Below are positions 1 to 6,933 of a stretch of DNA of 14,429 bases, piece after piece. The position numbers were made by a program, and so were the translations under genes. Source of the DNA: a virus (taxonomy: Duplodnaviria > Heunggongvirae > Uroviricota > Caudoviricetes); the IMG/VR virus record IMGVR_UViG_2630968766_000006, positions 1 to 14,429 of that record; one strand, 5' to 3'. The notes beneath the pieces were generated by a model, which was given only the letters and a program-made list of their open reading frames with translations, was not told the DNA's origin and made no database searches. The stretch's first letter is position 1, and each line of letters opens with the position of its first letter.

Positions 1-1221
1 ATGGCGGGCACTAACAAGCTGAGTGATAAAAAGCTAAAGGCGCTACAGGGCGTTGAACGTGATGCGCCTGCAATGTTTGCCGATGGCGAAGGATTGAGCG
101 CGAAAGCCTCCCGGCAAGGCCAATTAAGCTGGGTGTTTTCGTATCGGCTTGGTGGGCGTGGTAGCCGTCTGGAACGTCTGACACTTGGCCGCTACCCGGA
201 TATGTCGCTAAAAGCCGCGCGCGAAAAACGTGAACAGTGTCGGCAATGGCTGGCAAACGGCCATGATCCTAAAACCGAGCTGGTACTGAGTACCGAAGAA
301 ACGCTTAAGCCGGTGACGGTCAAAGATGCGCTGGAATACTGGTTAACAAAATATGCCAGGAAAAAGCGCACCGATGAGGAGCTGGTTAGAGCACAGTTGC
401 AAAAGCACATCTACCCGCGTCTTGGTCATTATCCGCTTACCCGCTGTGAAACTCGCCATTGGGTGGCGAGTCTGGATGAAATAGGTCAGAAGCAGCCAAA
501 AACAGCGGGGCGCATGTTCCAGATCTGCAAACAGGCGTTACGGTTCTGTAAGGTTCGCCGTTACGCTTCCAGTGATGCCCTTGCCATTCTCACCATTCAG
601 GACGTTGGCGAGCCTTCCGGCCAGCGTGACCGCGTGCTATCCGATAGAGAGCTGGCGGATGTGTGGCGCTGTACTTATAGCGATGACCAGCAAGCCTACT
701 ACCTACGGCTTTTAAAAATTCTGGTGCTGTTTGGCGCTCGAACGATGGAAGTGAGGCTGTCACGCTGGTCGGAGTGGGATTTTCATTCATGGATCTGGAC
801 GGTTCCCAAAGAACACAGCAAAACTCGTGAAAAAATTGTGCGGTCGATTCCCGAAGGCATCCGCCCATGGCTGGAAGAATTGAAAAGGCAGACGGGTAAA
901 ACGGGCCTTTTATTGGGTGAGGATCGTACTCGCCAATCGGTGTCACTTAAAGGGCGCAGATTGTATAAAGATTTTCACCATAACGAGCCGTGGACGCTTC
1001 ACGATTTACGCCGGACGTTTTCCACAGGGCTAAACAATATGGGGATTGCGCCGCATATCGTCGAGCTGCTGTTAGGCCATGCTTTGCCGGGAGTGATGGC
1101 GATTTATAACCGTAGTTTGTATCTGCCGGAGAAGCTGGACGCGTTGAATAAATGGTATGAACGTTTAGAACTGTTAATCATGGATTCATCTAATATTATC
1201 ATGTTGAATAGAGGAGCTTGA
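1..1221 (+). CDS. int: Tyrosine site-specific integrase, P4-like
   Basis: 406-aa ORF; C-terminal catalytic region with HDLRRTF...LLGH...AIYNRSLY pattern typical of tyrosine recombinases (R, H-x-x-R, catalytic Y); N-terminal arm-binding-like domain. Last ~60 nt are AT-rich unlike the rest of the gene. Confidence 0.9.
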   Translation: MAGTNKLSDKKLKALQGVERDAPAMFADGEGLSAKASRQGQLSWVFSYRLGGRGSRLERLTLGRYPDMSLKAAREKREQCRQWLANGHDPKTELVLSTEETLKPVTVKDALEYWLTKYARKKRTDEELVRAQLQKHIYPRLGHYPLTRCETRHWVASLDEIGQKQPKTAGRMFQICKQALRFCKVRRYASSDALAILTIQDVGEPSGQRDRVLSDRELADVWRCTYSDDQQAYYLRLLKILVLFGARTMEVRLSRWSEWDFHSWIWTVPKEHSKTREKIVRSIPEGIRPWLEELKRQTGKTGLLLGEDRTRQSVSLKGRRLYKDFHHNEPWTLHDLRRTFSTGLNNMGIAPHIVELLLGHALPGVMAIYNRSLYLPEKLDALNKWYERLELLIMDSSNIIMLNRGA

Positions 1222-1222
1222 G

Positions 1223-1882
1223 ATGGTTAGTTTTATTAAACTCGGCATTTTTGAAAGGGAAGCTAAAACACCAGCACTAAATATTAAACAGCTCTCATTG
1301 TTGCTATGTGGTGAAAGTCCAGATTTAAAAACCGCAGAAATACCAGATAATAAAATCGAAGCATATAATATTTATTATAAGCACATAGGAAAGTGGTTTC
1401 AGTCATCTGGGGTATTTAAAGGGGGGTATACAGTACCACAGTCAGCCGATTACATGTTCGCAATGGCTTACCCAATGATAGACGAAGAACTAACCCCTGA
1501 GCCTATCAAGCGGCGTTGCCTTGAAGCGGTTGCTTCTATAGCTGGTAAAAAAAACGGTAAAGATCTGTTATTAGTTCTTGGGGGAGAGGAATTATATCTC
1601 AAAGGTGTTGAGCTAAGTCGTAATCAGCGGGGGTTACATCGCAAAGAAGATGAACAAGATAATTCAGCAAAGTTGATTGGTTTAATGGCCAAGCTACTGG
1701 CTAAAAAAATAGGACACTCATATGGCAGTGTTGATAAACCAATAACATCTGCTATTTATAATGATATTATTAAAATTGCTGACGATGAGAAAATATCAAA
1801 GAGAGGATTATCAAAATCTACCGTCTATAAAAAATTTTCTGATGCCTCCGCGTTGTTGTCAGTGAACGATGATATGGAATGA
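1223..1882 (+). CDS. Hypothetical protein (219 aa), AT-rich cargo gene with C-terminal HTH-like motif (ISKRGLSKSTVYKKF)
   Basis: ATG at 1223 two nt after int stop (TGA 1219-1221), GAGGAG Shine-Dalgarno at 1211-1216; long ORF in a markedly AT-rich segment (about 1150-2170); no antisense ORF of comparable length; C-terminal segment resembles Hin/resolvase-type HTH recognition helix. Confidence 0.6.
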   Translation: MVSFIKLGIFEREAKTPALNIKQLSLLLCGESPDLKTAEIPDNKIEAYNIYYKHIGKWFQSSGVFKGGYTVPQSADYMFAMAYPMIDEELTPEPIKRRCLEAVASIAGKKNGKDLLLVLGGEELYLKGVELSRNQRGLHRKEDEQDNSAKLIGLMAKLLAKKIGHSYGSVDKPITSAIYNDIIKIADDEKISKRGLSKSTVYKKFSDASALLSVNDDME

Positions 1883-1919
1883 TGAACAATCAACAACAAA
1901 GCTCATGTTGGGTATCGTT

Positions 1920-1966
1920 GCATAATCTGCATAATCTGCATAATCCACAAAATTTGCGAATTATGC
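1920..1966. repeat. Tandem 9-bp repeat GCATAATCT x3 (1920-1946) plus inverted copy ATTATGC (1960-1966)
   Basis: Read directly: gcataatct gcataatct gcataatcc, then attatgc 14 bp downstream. Confidence 0.8.
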
Positions 1967-2050
1967 TATTTTTTGCTTGTTTTCAGTGAGATACGTTAGG
2001 AATTAATGCAATAACATGTTGTATTGAATGATAAACACAAGGGATATTTT

Positions 2051-2118
2051 TTTCACTGGAATTATTATGTTTCACTGGAATAGTTACCTGTTTCAAAAGA
2101 TTCCAGACTTGCTGGAAT
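2051..2118. promoter_or_regulatory. Repeat cluster upstream of alpA: TTTCACTGGAAT direct repeat (2051-2062, 2070-2081) and inverted pair ATTCCAG / CTGGAAT (2100-2106, 2112-2118); putative operator/promoter region
   Basis: Four copies of the CTGGAAT core within 70 bp, ending about 55 bp before the alpA start codon; AT-rich. Confidence 0.45.
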
Positions 2119-2174
2119 TACTGAGTATGCATCCATTAGTATTTGCCCGAAAGCAATGAAACAATGGAGACAGC

Positions 2175-2459
2175 ATGTCTAATATTATCTTTACCCCACC
2201 GAATGCCGAACAGCGTCGCGCTCTTCTGGAAGAATATGGCTTCAAGTTCGAACGTCGCATCCGTGAGGATGAGTGTATCGAGATAACCAGCCTTTCCCGC
2301 TCTACACGTTGGAAAATGGAACAAGAAGGCCGCTTTCCGGCGCGTTGCCACTTTGGTCGTAATTCCTGCGCCTGGCTGCTTTCGGACGTTCTCTGGTGGG
2401 TGCGCAATCCGCCAACCGTTGAGAACGTAAATAACCCTTACAGCCGCAAATCCGCATAA
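2175..2459 (+). CDS. alpA: AlpA-family (P4 Vis-like) prophage transcriptional regulator / excisionase
   Basis: 94-aa ORF, TGGAG RBS at 2166-2170; sequence pattern (ITSLSRSTRWKMEQEGRFP...) typical of AlpA/Vis winged-helix small regulators; conserved position after int in P4-like and PICI elements. Confidence 0.8.
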   Translation: MSNIIFTPPNAEQRRALLEEYGFKFERRIREDECIEITSLSRSTRWKMEQEGRFPARCHFGRNSCAWLLSDVLWWVRNPPTVENVNNPYSRKSA

Positions 2460-2590
2460 TTCATAACAGGTAAATAGCGATGAAAAAAATAAATGCCCTC
2501 ACCGGGCAGGGATTCGATCAGCCTGAAAACAGGCACAAAGCTATTTTGTCACCAGTTTTGAACGGTTGAGGAAAACCACTGATGTTGATT

Positions 2591-2618
2591 AAAACAAAGG
2601 CGGCCTTGCCGGGCCGCC
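2591..2618 (-). terminator. Rho-independent terminator for the minus-strand RHH gene
   Basis: GC hairpin GGCGGCC-ttgccg-GGCCGCC (2599-2618); on the minus strand it is followed immediately by TTTGTTTT (complement of 2591-2598). Confidence 0.4.
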
Positions 2619-2709
2619 AGTGCAATGACACTAAACCTATTCATATCACCAGGCTGATCGCTGGTGGTCAAATCGTGAGCAAAGCTCTAAAAATAGCTTC
2701 GAAACAAAA

Positions 2710-2892
2710 TCAACCTTTTGGCTCGATTCCTTTTGCTCGCAATTTTTCTCGGCAAGCATCTTTCACCCACGCGCTGAATTGCCCTTGCCCTGCGGCTGCG
2801 TTGATTTGCGCCAATAGTTCATCTTCAAAGCGTATGTGCTTCATTGTACTGCCTGATCGGTCAAAATCTTTTTTTGCCTTGGATTGTTGCAT
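2710..2892 (-). CDS. Small ribbon-helix-helix-like DNA-binding protein (60 aa; alternative start at internal Met giving 44 aa)
   Basis: MKHIRFEDELLAQINAAAG...FSAWVKDACREKL fits beta-strand plus two helices of RHH (CopG/Arc-like) proteins; own terminator downstream; start codon abuts an 11-bp inverted repeat. The overlapping + frame 2582-3226 looks non-protein-like. Confidence 0.45.
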   Translation of the reverse strand: MQQSKAKKDFDRSGSTMKHIRFEDELLAQINAAAGQGQFSAWVKDACREKLRAKGIEPKG

Positions 2893-2893
2893 T

Positions 2894-2936
2894 GGTAGTT
2901 ACCACCAGTGTAAAGTTATTATCAATGGTAACTACC
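2894..2936. promoter_or_regulatory. Perfect 11-bp inverted repeat GGTAGTTACCA-N21-TGGTAACTACC in the divergent promoter region between the RHH gene and the first Icd-like gene; putative operator
   Basis: Read directly from sequence; arms at 2894-2904 and 2926-2936. Confidence 0.45.
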
Positions 2937-3027
2937 ATGAAAATGTAAAGCAACTTAAAACAGCGAAGCCCGCGAGTGCTACCAACACTTGCGAGCTTCT
3001 GACCACAACATTATCCGAGGTAACGCT

Positions 3028-3234
3028 ATGGCTTCCGCTAATAGTACCACATCCGCGCGCCCTGAAAATCGCGTGTTTCTCTTCCTTGCCTTATCCCGTG
3101 CCGATCAGAACGCCAGGCCACACCGTGAGCAAGTTATTGCTACCAGCGAACGCGAAGCGCGTCTTATGCTGGTGGGCCGCTACGTGCTTTCTTTTGCTGG
3201 TCGCCTGCCAGTATCGGAGGCTTATCATGAATAA
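3028..3234 (+). CDS. Icd-like small protein (host cell division inhibitor Icd-like family), 68 aa
   Basis: ATG at 3028 with GAGG RBS at 3017-3020 (ORF track opens at TTG 2989); FLFLALSRADQNARP...SEREARLMLVGRYVLSFAGRLP pattern recalled from Icd-like proteins of P4-like elements; stop overlaps next start. Confidence 0.5.
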   Translation: MASANSTTSARPENRVFLFLALSRADQNARPHREQVIATSEREARLMLVGRYVLSFAGRLPVSEAYHE

Positions 3235-3628
3235 GCCAATTACCGCTGCTGCTTACCTGCTTCACACTGCTGATATGTGCGCCTCGCAGGTGTGCCAACT
3301 GGTTGAATGCCACGACGCCGCCGGACACCATGCGCTATGCCAGACATTAGCGGCGGGGCTGACCGCGCTTAAGCTGGCTTGTGATGCGGATATCCAGTCT
3401 TCACCAGTCGCGGAAACAACACTGCCACTTAGCCTGGAGGCTTACTGGCCTGATAATAGTTTGACGCTGGAATACTGCGAAGCACTGGTAAAGGTGCTGT
3501 CTGTTGATGCCTTGCCCCCCGAATTGATCCAGCCGCTTACCGGGCTGTTGCATGACCTGGTGAATATGCTGGCCGACCAGTGGAAAGAAGAACTGAAAAC
3601 CACAGATGCAGGGGGCAATCATGAATAA
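3227..3628 (+). CDS. Hypothetical protein (134 aa)
   Basis: In-frame ATG at 3227 overlapping the stop of the preceding gene; the upstream part of the 348-aa ORF-track entry (2582-3226) is Cys-rich, low-complexity and overlaps better-supported genes, so only 3227-3628 is called. Confidence 0.5.
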   Translation: MNKPITAAAYLLHTADMCASQVCQLVECHDAAGHHALCQTLAAGLTALKLACDADIQSSPVAETTLPLSLEAYWPDNSLTLEYCEALVKVLSVDALPPELIQPLTGLLHDLVNMLADQWKEELKTTDAGGNHE

Positions 3629-3911
3629 GTTCACCTGGCTTTTTCAGGCTATCTACGCCGACCACCAGCCCCCTGTTGTTATGCGCACACAGGCTGATAC
3701 CGAAGAGGATGCCCGCCGCCAGCTTTCCGGCGCATGGTCCTTAACATTTGTCGCCAAACTTAATACGGCCTGCCCGGTTAACCATCAGTTTTACGCAGAA
3801 GAAGATCAATCTATGTGGGGGATTGTTGCCACCAGGCTGACTCATGACGACATCACGCAGTGGGGCAATGAGGTGTTCGGGAATCGTAATAACTTGCGGG
3901 CTACCTGGTAA
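3621..3911 (+). CDS. Second Icd-like small protein (paralog of 3028-3234), 96 aa
   Basis: ATG 3621 with AGGGGG RBS at 3611-3616, overlaps previous stop (ATGAATAAG); shares the motif T-E-E-x-A-R-x-x-L-x-G-x-x-x-L-[ST]-F-x-A-K/R-L with ORF 3028-3234. Confidence 0.5.
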   Translation: MNKFTWLFQAIYADHQPPVVMRTQADTEEDARRQLSGAWSLTFVAKLNTACPVNHQFYAEEDQSMWGIVATRLTHDDITQWGNEVFGNRNNLRATW

Positions 3912-3939
3912 TTCTTCCGGCTAAATAAGGCATTAAATA

Positions 3940-4263
3940 ATGGCTAAAAAAATCAATCAGGTTAAACCTGAGGGCAAAACTCACCCTTTAATTGAGATTA
4001 ACACCCGCTGGAAAGATAACTGGGGTATCAAAATCACTATTTGCAAGGTGGAAGAAAACCGCGTGATGTATATCCGCGACGGGTACAAACATGAATGCGT
4101 ATGCTCACCGGATCGCCTGCGTCGTGAATTTTCTTTCCTCCCGGAAGAGAGCAAGGAATATCAGGCTGCAGCCATCGCCAGAGGCCGTAAACGCGCCGCC
4201 GAACTGCGTCATAGTTTGCCGGTTACCTTTGGATCGGCTGGCTGGGATAAGGGGCTGGTATGA
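3940..4263 (+). CDS. Hypothetical protein (107 aa), translationally coupled to the replication gene
   Basis: ORF ends with ATGA overlap onto the pri-rep start (4260); basic C-terminal region; no recognisable motif. Confidence 0.5.
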   Translation: MAKKINQVKPEGKTHPLIEINTRWKDNWGIKITICKVEENRVMYIRDGYKHECVCSPDRLRREFSFLPEESKEYQAAAIARGRKRAAELRHSLPVTFGSAGWDKGLV

Positions 4264-6080
4264 AGAACGCGCCGAATCTTAAACATCAACCGAAAGATAA
4301 ACATGTTGCGGTGGTTATCTTTGCCGGGGCTGATGCCTTCGCTCACGCTAAAACATGGGAAGAAGGCTGGGGATTAAAAATTGCCGCAGATAAAACACCG
4401 CCTGTCTGGCTGGGGACAAAGCAACTGGCAGAGCTGGCGAACCTGCGCATTATCGACCAGGGGCGTAAGTATGTTCGCATCTATCTTGCCGGAGATATCG
4501 AGTCTGTCCTGATTAACGCCATTGCTGAAAAACTGGCGCTGGCGGGCGTAGAGGAAGCGAAATTATATAAGGGGATACCTGACCAGAACCCGGAAGACTG
4601 GCGCGACTACCTTAACCGGATACGCGGAGAGCATGTGCGTGGTGAAGTCGGTCCGGTGGCGCAAATGATCAAACAGGAATTGGCCGTGACGCTGCCACTT
4701 AACCAGATGGGGCCGAGTCAGCGCGGTGATGTGCTGGCGGCGCATTATGGTAACGATCTGGCAATTGATGGTGATTCCGACACCGTTCACCACTATAACG
4801 GCATGGTCTGGAAACCGTTGCAGGATAAGGAACTGCAAAGAGTAATGGCGCGGATCTTCATTAAGGCAGATATCGCCTATTCACCCGCCAGTGTAAAAAA
4901 TGCGGTGGATGCCATGAAGTTAAGCCTTCCGCAGATGGGAGCGCCAGCCCGCCACCTTATCGGATTTCGTAATGGTGTATTTGATACCCGCGCCGCACAA
5001 TTCCGGGCGCATGACAAAGATGACTGGTTGCTTGTAGCCAGTGATGTTGATTTCTGCCAGCCAGAGAACGGCGAAAGCCTGGAAGCTCACGCGCCTAACT
5101 TCTGGCGCTGGCTGCAACATGCGACGGCGAAAGATGCCCGAAAATCGGATCGTCTTCTGGCCGCGTTGTTTATGGTGCTGGCTAACCGCTACGACTGGCA
5201 ATTGTTCCTTGAAGTGACGGGACCGGGTGGCAGCGGTAAAAGCGTTATGGCGGAAATCTGTACCATGCTGGCCGGCAAGGGTAACACGGTGTCGGCGAGT
5301 ATGGGCGCGCTGGAAGTACCACGCGAAAGGGCGCTGGTGGTTGGTTATTCACTGATTATCTTGCCGGATATGAGCCGTTACGCCGGAGATGGCGCAGGCA
5401 TTAAAGCCATAACAGGTGGTGACCGGGTATCTATAGATCCGAAGCATAAAGCGCCGTATTCCATTCGTATTCCCGCTGTGGTGCTGGCGGTTAATAACAA
5501 CGCGATGACATTCAGTGACCGCAGTGGGGGGATCTCCCGCCGCCGGGTGATTTTCAACTTCCCGGAGGTTGTGAACGAGAAAGACCGCGATCCTATGCTG
5601 GTGGAGAAAATCGAGGCGGAATTACCGGTCATCATCCGCCATCTGTTAACCCGCTTTACCAGGCAGGACGACGCCCGCCAGTTACTGGCTGAACAGCGTA
5701 AATCCGAGGAGGCCTTAGCCATTAAGCGCGAAGGTGATTCGCTGGTGGACTTTTGCGGCTATCTGATGGCATTGCTTGAATGTGAGGGAATGATTGTGGG
5801 TAATGCGGAAATGACGCCATTCAGCCCGCGCCGTTATCTCTATCACGCCTATCTGTCATATATGTCAGCGCATGGTCTGGGAAAGCCAGTATCACTGACC
5901 CGCTTTGGTACTGATATGCCGGGGGCGATGGCTGAATATGGCGCGGAGTATAAGCGCAGACAATGCACCAGGGGACCAGATAAAGGCCGCACTATTTCAA
6001 ACGTTCGGTTAAAGGATGAGGCGGATACATGGCTTCCGGCGGCAACGGGTATTAATACTGAACTTAACGAGGAAAATTAA
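4260..6080 (+). CDS. Replication initiator: primase / SF3 helicase (D5 N-terminal-like plus P4 alpha C-terminal-type helicase domain), PICI pri-rep
   Basis: 606-aa ORF; Walker A GPGGSGKS (LEVTGPGGSGKSVMAE) and downstream Walker B-like hydrophobic stretch ending in D (LIILPDM) as in SF3 helicases of phage/plasmid primases; followed immediately by an iteron-rich AT-rich region. Confidence 0.85.
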   Translation: MKNAPNLKHQPKDKHVAVVIFAGADAFAHAKTWEEGWGLKIAADKTPPVWLGTKQLAELANLRIIDQGRKYVRIYLAGDIESVLINAIAEKLALAGVEEAKLYKGIPDQNPEDWRDYLNRIRGEHVRGEVGPVAQMIKQELAVTLPLNQMGPSQRGDVLAAHYGNDLAIDGDSDTVHHYNGMVWKPLQDKELQRVMARIFIKADIAYSPASVKNAVDAMKLSLPQMGAPARHLIGFRNGVFDTRAAQFRAHDKDDWLLVASDVDFCQPENGESLEAHAPNFWRWLQHATAKDARKSDRLLAALFMVLANRYDWQLFLEVTGPGGSGKSVMAEICTMLAGKGNTVSASMGALEVPRERALVVGYSLIILPDMSRYAGDGAGIKAITGGDRVSIDPKHKAPYSIRIPAVVLAVNNNAMTFSDRSGGISRRRVIFNFPEVVNEKDRDPMLVEKIEAELPVIIRHLLTRFTRQDDARQLLAEQRKSEEALAIKREGDSLVDFCGYLMALLECEGMIVGNAEMTPFSPRRYLYHAYLSYMSAHGLGKPVSLTRFGTDMPGAMAEYGAEYKRRQCTRGPDKGRTISNVRLKDEADTWLPAATGINTELNEEN

Positions 6081-6094
6081 AAATAGTCTTTAAA

Positions 6095-6391
6095 CTGTCT
6101 ACCGTATCTACCAGATAATTAATTGATATATAAATCAGTGAGTTAAATTGGTAGATACCTGGTAGACAGTAAGAGACTAAGTGTCTTCTGTATCTACTTT
6201 ATTTTTTATTAAAGCTCTAAAAGCCAAAGTGCAAAAAAGCACTCTGGAACAAATTCAATCGCTTATGTGACTATCTTACATTTATAAGTAGAGGGTCTGG
6301 TAGAGAGTAGTAGATACATCAAAGGGTAAGTGTTTACCACTTAACTTAATGAAAATAATAGTAAATTTCATGGGGGTAGACAGGTAGACAG
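6095..6391. repeat. Putative replication origin: iterons GGTAGACAG / GGTAGATAC in direct and inverted orientation within AT-rich DNA
   Basis: CTGTCTACC-GTATCTACC (6095-6112); GGTAGATAC-ct-GGTAGACAG (6150-6169); GTATCTAC (6190-6197); GTAGATAC (6310-6317); GGTAGACAG-GTAGACAG (6375-6391). Located directly 3' of the primase/helicase gene. Confidence 0.6.
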
Positions 6392-6434
6392 TTTGAGCAC
6401 ATAAGTTTATTTTTTCTTATTTACGAGGATTTTA

Positions 6435-6713
6435 ATGATGTTTAATTTTAAGGATGTTCTGGAATATCGCGAATTTTATGGAATGAATAATAATTTTCAG
6501 GACATGGGCCTGTCTGATTATGCCGAAGCTCTCAAAAATGAAGCGATAGTGCATATTGATTGTCATGGTTTTTTGGTTGATGCATTCAGCGGTATGGTGC
6601 TTGCTGCCGATGGTGAGCAACTGGATTTATTTATCGCGCACCTGCAAAAAATACGCCGTGAATTACCTGACGGAATGCGTGATAAAAATCTGAGGGACTC
6701 ATTAAGAAAATAG
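6435..6713 (+). CDS. Hypothetical small protein (92 aa), AT-rich
   Basis: GAGGA RBS at 6425-6429, ATG 6435; followed by a hairpin terminator; no recognisable motif. Confidence 0.5.
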   Translation: MMFNFKDVLEYREFYGMNNNFQDMGLSDYAEALKNEAIVHIDCHGFLVDAFSGMVLAADGEQLDLFIAHLQKIRRELPDGMRDKNLRDSLRK

Positions 6714-6732
6714 TTTTGTAAATTATTTGTTC

Positions 6733-6786
6733 GCCTGTTTTCACCGTTGTTCACGCCGGAAACAGGCTATTTACTTCAACTTTTTC
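6733..6786 (+). terminator. Putative rho-independent terminator after ORF 6435-6713
   Basis: Stem GCCTGTTT (6733-6740) / AAACAGGC (6760-6767) with 19-nt loop, followed by T-rich tract tatttacttcaactttttc. Confidence 0.3.
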
Positions 6787-6933
6787 ATGTATATGTTAAC
6801 GGGTGGCACTCAGACGTGAGCCGCCACCGATCCCCCGGTTTCCTGCCGTATCTGCAACGGTTCCTTTTCCGGGGGATCATCTCCCTTCCGTGCTGGTTTC
6901 ACGTCTCCTCTTATTTTTTGCGAGAAACCACAC

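Follow-up and report, generated by a model that had tools for sequence, protein, structure and literature searches.

Iterons 3′ of the initiator gene as the probable replication origin of a capsid-forming phage-inducible chromosomal island of Escherichia coli

Where does a capsid-forming phage-inducible chromosomal island (cf-PICI) start its own replication, and which part of its initiator reads the site? The question is raised by 14,429 nucleotides (nt) of DNA (IMG/VR record IMGVR_UViG_2630968766_000006, positions 1 to 14,429; hereafter the window) that hold a complete cf-PICI from E. coli, in which an array of short repeats (6095-6391) directly follows the gene for a P4-alpha-type initiator, Pri-Rep. 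An earlier note, made from the sequence alone, took this array for a probable origin of replication. Judged from sequence comparison, the array is very probably the vegetative replication origin of the island. The repeats are enriched and conserved, they co-vary with a short segment of the initiator, and they are homologous to validated origins. The earlier proposal is thus supported by the core and layout shared with the origin of EcCICFT073, by arrays that follow the initiator in 25 loci, by an iteron class that tracks a C-terminal segment of the initiator, and by homology with P4. An origin of this kind has already been shown to function in the related island EcCICFT073, and the finding is correct but largely ordinary; added here are a rule that ties the specificity segment to the iteron class and the homology of the array with both ori and crr of P4.

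The exact core GTAGAYA has 10 matches on the two strands of the window, eight of them within 6096-6390. The expectation for the whole window is 1.52 (standard deviation 1.16); none of 200 shuffles reached 10, and the shuffle maximum was 5. A search with GGTAGAYAS at one mismatch or fewer adds sites at 6190-6198, 6299-6307, 6309-6317, and 6330-6338, and alignment with relatives adds two more decayed copies (6181-6189 and 6287-6295). The array totals 12 sites in both orientations, four of which are degenerate. The eight exact cores bear out the earlier count of at least eight copies in both orientations, and the limits then given, 6095 and 6391, are exactly those of the first and last sites. The near-perfect 18-bp inverted pair reported at the same time is also real: 6095-6112 and 6150-6169 match perfectly apart from a 2-nt insertion, and as single-stranded DNA the pair folds at -17.7 kcal/mol (z = -7.7 versus shuffles). 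The first iteron begins 15 nt past the stop codon (6078-6080) of the 606-amino-acid (aa) initiator gene. Two minus-strand sites (6095 and 6104) face two plus-strand sites (6150 and 6161) across a 37-nt spacer, and a second convergent arrangement is formed by 6330(-), a 36-nt spacer, and 6375(+)/6383(+). The description of an AT-rich non-coding stretch 3′ of the replication gene holds as well, with no open reading frame (ORF) of 40 aa or more in 6081-6434 in the ORF list and a G+C fraction of 0.29-0.37 there against 0.50-0.58 in the flanking genes (32% GC in the array gap).

The initiator has Pfam matches to D5_N (residues 157-287), DUF5906 (320-428), and Pox_D5 (491-567). It also matches phrog_864 'DNA primase' (E 4e-143) and TIGR01613 'phage/plasmid primase, P4 family' (E 5.5e-27, under the model's curated cut-off), and its helicase core matches the structure of PriRep from the Staphylococcus aureus pathogenicity island (SaPI) SaPI5 (7OLA, E 1e-10). 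The N-terminus gave a weak Toprim_3 match (E 0.07, 14 bits, below cut-off), no zinc-binding domain was detected in the N-terminal region, and by tblastn the initiator has no match to the N-terminus of P4 alpha. Of the 'primase/helicase gene' named earlier, the helicase part is confirmed by the superfamily 3 (SF3) domains, and the primase part found no domain match beyond the weak Toprim. The N-terminal region (residues 1-140, 4260-4680) is mosaic, and about half of the loci compared below carry an unrelated N-terminus. The C-terminal domain of the initiator matches PDB chain 1KA8, which we take to be the winged-helix origin-binding domain of P4 alpha (Yeo et al., 2002; Ziegelin et al., 1993, 1995).

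In Gram-negative PICIs, the origin directly follows the initiator gene on its 3′ side (Fillol-Salom et al. 2018, ISME J; PMC6092414). It consists of two iteron sets flanking an AT-rich region and is required for replication in EcCICFT073, whose rep-ori segment maintains a temperature-sensitive plasmid, while delta-ori and delta-rep versions fail (PMC6092414). EcCICFT073 and the window have in common the GGTAGAYA core, an array immediately 3′ of pri-rep, an initiator of the same architecture, and a site order of two (-), a spacer of ~40 nt, (+) sites, (-) sites, (+)(+), and a final (+)(+). They differ in that the initiators are only 43% identical, with different C-termini, and in that the window has a second (+) site replacing one (-) site, a central insertion of ~60 nt, and a capsid-forming rather than a classical PICI around the array. 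Since the core and layout are shared with a validated origin, the array of the window belongs to a known and functionally validated kind.

We compared 25 loci, namely 20 from species-representative genomes, three from complete E. coli genomes, EcCICFT073, and P4. Related initiator genes are found in 2019 of 5426 complete E. coli genomes. In all 25 loci the ~350 nt after the initiator stop codon are AT-rich and carry a short repeated motif. The motif falls into four classes, GGTAGAYA, GGTGAACA, GGTGGAGA, and GGGACAAC (Table 1), which are mutually exclusive: a locus holds 5-12 copies of one class and at most one of any other. The typical layout is (-)(-), ~44 nt, (+), ~20 nt, (-)(-)(-), ~45 nt, (+)(+), ~65 nt, (+)(+). 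Site order, orientation, and spacing are conserved across the classes; the arrays form a single homologous structure whose recognised bases have changed from class to class.

The array stays 3′ of the initiator gene regardless of the genes that come next. These are capsid genes in five loci (L004, L007, L008, L009, L013), ProQ/PerC/SSB genes in L025, L026, and EcCICFT073, and an att site with int in P4. This constancy bears on another explanation, that the repeats are transcription-factor operators of a regulated late promoter for the capsid and packaging operon. The position would suit such operators, as the array ends 43 nt before the first ATG of the morphogenesis operon (6435), which has a GAGGA ribosome-binding site. 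The terminator scan found none between pri-rep and the array, and the sole plus-strand promoter-like match has its -35 hexamer, TAGACA (a 5/6 match, 17 nt upstream of TATTTT), inside the last iteron. However, promoter-like matches are at chance level (3 versus 2.4 expected), and the same architecture stands before the ProQ/PerC/SSB genes of classical PICIs and before att/int in P4. Moreover, the iterons of L004, L007, and L008 differ from those of L009 even though the C-terminal parts of their capsid proteins are 86-88% identical to that of the window, and the iteron class is independent of alpA and the other island proteins compared. We thus consider operators very unlikely as the primary function. 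A secondary role is compatible with an origin: with TAGACA in the last iteron ahead of the morphogenesis operon, binding of the initiator could also modulate the promoter-like site at 6385-6413 and so affect late transcription. It is hardly credible that the terminase of the island recognises the array as a packaging site (cos or pac). A repeat-rich non-coding region does adjoin the morphogenesis genes, but the motif is absent near HNH, terS, and terL, the same arrays occur in islands and in P4 without these terminase genes, and islands with head genes similarly related to those of the window carry different iterons.

The iteron class is instead matched by the end of the initiator. A sliding comparison along the protein found one strongly class-discriminating segment, at the extreme C-terminus, with an identity of 0.65 within and 0.39 between classes, and the alignment confines class-specific sequence and length to residues 564-590. 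Segments of the form ...CT[RK]GPDKGR[TV]I[ST]N pair with the GGTAGAYA iteron, ...KTK[HQ]G-[ILM]RSN with GGTGAACA, and ...KST-KG[NH]MRSN with GGTGGAGA. The class is independent of the N-terminal domain of the initiator (L020 is 80% identical to the window there, with a different C-terminus and iteron), of the helicase core (72-83% identity to the window in all classes), of alpA (88-89% identity to the window in both L009, with GTAGAYA, and L008, with GTGAACA), and of the head (capsid) genes and any other island protein compared. A natural swap is seen in one metagenome-assembled genome, JBCNOW01, which carries two islands, L015 (contig 24) and L018 (contig 9), with helicase cores ~98% identical. 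Of the residues of the two initiators, 345/350 agree in the helicase core and 68/73 in the helical part of the C-terminal domain (491-563), against only 11/23 in 564-590, and the iteron is GTGGAGA in L018 and GTGAACA in L015. Such a pattern would be expected if co-resident satellites avoid origin cross-talk. The three loci from complete E. coli genomes were brought in with the classes already set and show the same segment-iteron pairing. The P4 alpha segment KRHTKQGIQTN resembles the GGTGAACA-class segment KRKTKHGIRSN, so that the pairing agrees with the one experimentally studied case. The earlier note would have given up its reading had the iterons not been conserved where the initiator is; in the 25 loci the iterons are kept wherever the C-terminal specificity segment is kept, and switch only together with it. 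From these comparisons we propose that residues 564-590 set which iteron the initiator reads. If so, the C-terminal domain (residues 481-606) should bind its cognate GGTAGACAG and not GGTGAACAG or GGTGGAGAG.

Structure models of the C-terminal domain reached a mean confidence (pLDDT) of 57 with a 33-sequence alignment and 52 from the single sequence. Both were too poor for a fold search, and therefore only the three confidently modelled helices (residues 494-504, 523-537, and 546-558) were used, to place the variable segment. The segment follows the third helix, in a part of the model with pLDDT below 50. From this topology, residues 564-590 would sit at the wing position of a winged-helix fold.

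Other signals were searched for in the array. No DnaA box (TTWTNCACA) matches inside it. The IHF consensus WATCARNNNNTTR is matched twice in the first spacer, at 6116-6128(-) and 6133-6145(+), and five times in the whole window, against 0.95 expected. Further exact matches lie at 13427-13439 and 13857-13869, in the non-coding DNA between terL and hpt that is likely an att end. The strict IHF consensus is found in the first spacer of only three of ~25 arrays, and what is invariant across the iteron classes and the P4 ori (eight arrays aligned) is a spacer core, CA-N5-TTA. Since only this core is conserved and the strict consensus is rare, involvement of IHF is hypothetical. Scanned against Rfam at E up to 1, positions 5900-6700 yielded nothing but chance matches of hairpin type below threshold, which are attributable to the inverted iterons, and the array was rejected as an RNA element.

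Several points weigh against a working origin whose specificity is set as proposed. The replication function of this particular array is argued by analogy with its relatives, and the IHF sites are consensus matches within AT-rich DNA. The wing position rests on a topological argument from a low-confidence model of the specificity segment. The C-terminal domains of L016 and L017 are 35% identical to that of the window, and that of EcCICFT073 resembles theirs, yet all have the GTAGAYA core; thus two C-terminal lineages share one iteron, and cluster and iteron are not one-to-one. The co-variation also comes from ~26 phylogenetically related arrays, for which the mosaicism of the islands argues for, without proving, independent events.

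The remaining points concern decay. Four of the 12 iterons depart from the core, and ~60 nt of foreign sequence stand in the middle of the array. This insertion (6205-6268) matches, at 85-93% identity, an internal stretch of KilA-N genes from P22-like Salmonella phages (ST104, SE1, ST64B) and from a prophage of E. coli GN25; recombination with a phage seems to have left it behind as a piece of a gene. In addition, the major capsid gene (6934-8100) has an in-frame TAG at 7741-7743 (KLK*KYR versus KLKAKYR, with Ala in five relatives) that leaves ORFs of 269 and 109 aa. Two natural E. coli assemblies share this TAG, which is thus not a sequencing slip of the window alone. The island may be decaying, with its origin weakened or dead, and a relic origin inactivated in this way is the main alternative to a working one. 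We consider it unlikely. Eight exact cores are left, among them all the paired sites on the flanks of the two AT-rich spacers, and the ORF of the initiator is intact. In P4, 4.5 kb between ori and crr are tolerated, and 60 extra nt between the two modules of the array should therefore be harmless. Identical island sequence is also found in several independent E. coli assemblies.

The window contains all the components that define a cf-PICI, i.e., int, an alpA regulator, pri-rep, capsid, protease, portal, head-tail adaptor/connector, HNH, terS, and terL (PMC10085698). Tail and holin genes are absent from cf-PICIs by the same definition (PMC10085698), and no tail or lysis family matched among the window ORFs scanned. 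The initiator sequence is recorded from E. coli, the island is present in draft E. coli assemblies, and a 7.8-kb stretch of two of them is identical to the window. When 5800-6700 was compared by megablast with the 5426 complete E. coli genomes, the array was missing from the matches, which were limited to a primase fragment and the KilA-N piece. The remaining genes are given in Table 1.

Two further observations concern the region between the AlpA-type gene and pri-rep. A 348-aa ORF called mechanically at 2582-3628 is probably not real, since public assemblies instead annotate this stretch with a DUF3950 gene on the minus strand and, on the plus strand, ORFs of 68 and 133 aa. An inverted pair, GGTAGTTAC, at 2894 and 2928 was considered as a second cluster like the P4 ori and rejected. 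Its members are 12-bp palindromes of the form TGGTA-N2-TACCA that share merely GGTAG with the iteron, lie in a divergent promoter region, and are found only in copies of the window's own island. The near-palindromes themselves, TGGTAGTTACCA (2893-2904) and TGGTAACTACCA (2926-2937), are 12 bp each and 21 nt apart, between a minus-strand DUF3950/YlcI-like ORF (2710-2892) and the plus-strand operon toward pri-rep. They are probably the operator of the island's regulatory switch.

Table 1. Features of the window around and beyond the iteron array, and the loci assigned to each iteron class.
Feature	Coordinates	Strand	Remarks
Left-module iterons	6095-6103(-), 6104-6112(-), 6150-6158(+), 6161-6169(+), 6181-6189(-, decayed), 6190-6198(-)		module 6095-6198
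First AT-rich spacer	6113-6149		between convergent iteron pairs; ~79% A+T; candidate DNA-unwinding site; two IHF-consensus matches
KilA-N gene fragment, ~60 nt	6205-6268		central spacer of array; by alignment, absent from closest relatives' arrays
Right-module iterons	6287-6295(+, decayed), 6299-6307(+), 6309-6317(+), 6330-6338(-, decayed), 6375-6383(+), 6383-6391(+)		module 6287-6391
Second AT-rich spacer	6339-6374		right module; 36 nt, ~78% A+T
Promoter-like site for downstream operon	6385-6413	+	consensus match only; -35 TAGACA inside last iteron
Initiator (Pri-Rep, 606 aa)	4260-6080	+	P4-alpha/D5-type SF3 helicase
Putative origin-binding domain of initiator, residues 492-593	5733-6038	+	phmmer versus PDB 1KA8 (P4 alpha), E 2.2e-18
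Putative iteron-specificity segment, residues 564-590 (EYKRRQCTRGPDKGRTISNVRL)	5949-6029	+	sequence tracks iteron class
Integrase	1-1221		
phrog_30524 protein			after integrase, before AlpA-type gene
AlpA-type excisionase/regulator	2175-2459		
Icd-like ORF	3606-3911		
DUF4222	3940-4263		
phrog_1957 ORF	6435-6713		first gene of morphogenesis operon
HK97-type capsid, prohead protease, portal, head completion protein, connector, HNH, TerS, TerL			gene order 3′ of phrog_1957 ORF
Chromosomal hpt-like gene	13893-14429		island ends before 13893
GGTAGAYA class			window, L001, L005, L006, L009, L011, L016, L017, L019, L025, EcCICFT073
GGTGAACA class			L002, L003, L004, L007, L008, L010, L014, L015, L026, L027, P4
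GGTGGAGA class			L012, L013, L018
GGGACAAC class			L020

A further comparison is with satellite phage P4; the facts on P4 used here are from the annotation of GenBank NC_001609, the 1KA8 match, and general background. The reverse complement of GGTGAACA, TGTTCACC, is annotated in P4 as 'ori type 1 repeat' and occurs in both ori (9086-9809) and crr (4291-4590); this type-1 iteron is used by sister loci L002-4, 7, 8, 10, 14, 15, 26, and 27. The crr is directly 3′ of the alpha gene, and ori is ~4.5-4.7 kb away, upstream of the left operon (NC_001609). P4 alpha and the initiator of the window are 54% identical in the helicase core and 41% in the C-terminal domain (tblastn), and both systems have 8-bp iterons in both orientations, in an array directly 3′ of the initiator. 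The iterons themselves differ, GGTGAACA in P4 and GGTAGAYA in the window, whose array has no GTGAAYA copy. The N-terminal primase region also appears to differ, the Toprim match of the window being weak, and the ori and the duplicated crr of P4 are kilobases apart whereas the ori-like and crr-like modules of the window are contiguous within ~300 bp.

Read in the orientation of the alpha gene, the P4 ori can be aligned with the left module of PICI arrays, among them those of EcCICFT073 and the window, with iterons in matching columns and a spacer motif, CAGTnAGTTAA, in common. The right module aligns with the 120-bp units of the P4 crr through a (-) site, ~45 nt of spacer with ...TGAA..., and (+)(+). 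Independent blastn searches agree: the P4 ori matched ~+10 to +130 of the arrays of the same-iteron sister loci L003, L010, L007, and L008 (E 7e-11 to 1e-7), and the P4 crr matched ~+190 to +265 of those of L007, L027, and L014 (E 1e-6 to 3e-4). As the element directly 3′ of alpha is crr in P4, with the mapped ori ~4.7 kb off, and as the P4 crr units have their match in the right half, the array might be a crr-like cis enhancer only, with replication starting at a separate origin elsewhere in the island. We regard this as highly improbable. The left half is colinear with the P4 ori, spacer motif included, and sister loci match the ori in blastn as above; pri-rep and its 3′ region sufficed for plasmid maintenance in EcCICFT073 (PMC6092414). 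A scan of the whole 14.4 kb and, in the loci, of ~4 kb around the initiator gene found no second cluster of cognate iterons, while it did recover that of P4, at -4.7 kb. The islands thus appear to carry both cis elements of P4 side by side.

With the array as origin, replication can be pictured from the relatives of its initiator. After induction and excision of the island, the initiator (4260-6080) would bind the 8-9-bp GGTAGAYA iterons through its C-terminal domain, with the wing-position segment (residues 564-590) selecting the iteron. The pairs 6095/6104 and 6150/6161 would bracket the 37-nt AT-rich spacer 6113-6149, possibly bent by IHF. The SF3 helicase part would then assemble at this spacer, melt it, and load itself without host DnaA, DnaB, and DnaC, as do P4 alpha and SaPI Rep. 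Priming and elongation would follow as in P4, where they are independent of host DnaA, DnaB, DnaC, and DnaG. The right module (6287-6391), as the counterpart of the P4 crr, would be a cis-acting auxiliary block for binding of the alpha-type initiator beside the initiation site.

The earlier note had likened the array to SaPI and PICI origins. The PICI part of the likeness is upheld by the core and layout of EcCICFT073; SaPIs are not the closest system, ori and crr of P4 being closer. In SaPIs, ori is immediately downstream of rep and has 6-12 short iterons, at least two per side of a central AT-rich region and in opposite directions (PMC9371898). Their iterons are recognised by the C-terminal winged-helix domain of Rep, and self-loading of the helicase takes place on both sides of the AT-rich centre (PMC9371898). 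The window thus resembles SaPIs in an ori 3′ of rep and in oppositely directed iterons around an AT-rich centre, but the SaPI iterons are penta- or hexanucleotides of unrelated sequence, and only the helicase core of the initiator matched 7OLA. Iteron plasmid origins (RepA/pi/TrfA) have 17-22-bp direct repeats, DnaA boxes, a WH1-WH2 Rep, and loading of host DnaB. They have in common with the window repeated initiator sites beside an AT-rich unwinding region, whereas the repeats of the window are 8-9 bp in both orientations, there is no DnaA box, and the initiator is itself an SF3 helicase.

We lean slightly toward the view that origins of enterobacterial PICIs and cf-PICIs are a compact fusion of an ori-like and a crr-like module, both read by an alpha-type C-terminal domain, whose specificity has been repeatedly re-set by swaps of a ~25-residue wing segment and of the iterons (GGTAGAYA, GGTGAACA, GGTGGAGA). 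If true, satellites that share one cell, such as L015 and L018, would replicate without cross-talk. The segment-iteron rule would predict which initiator fires which origin. It would aid the annotation of these very common satellites, the prediction of cross-talk or incompatibility between replicons, and the building of orthogonal initiator/origin pairs. The adjacent modules of the islands are a minimal natural context in which to study the role of crr, in a replicon of PICIs and cf-PICIs now linked to the classical ori/crr of P4. Satellite primase-replicases have been suggested to be 'analogs instead of homologs' (PMC10085698); a fused and repeatedly re-set origin would contradict that suggestion.

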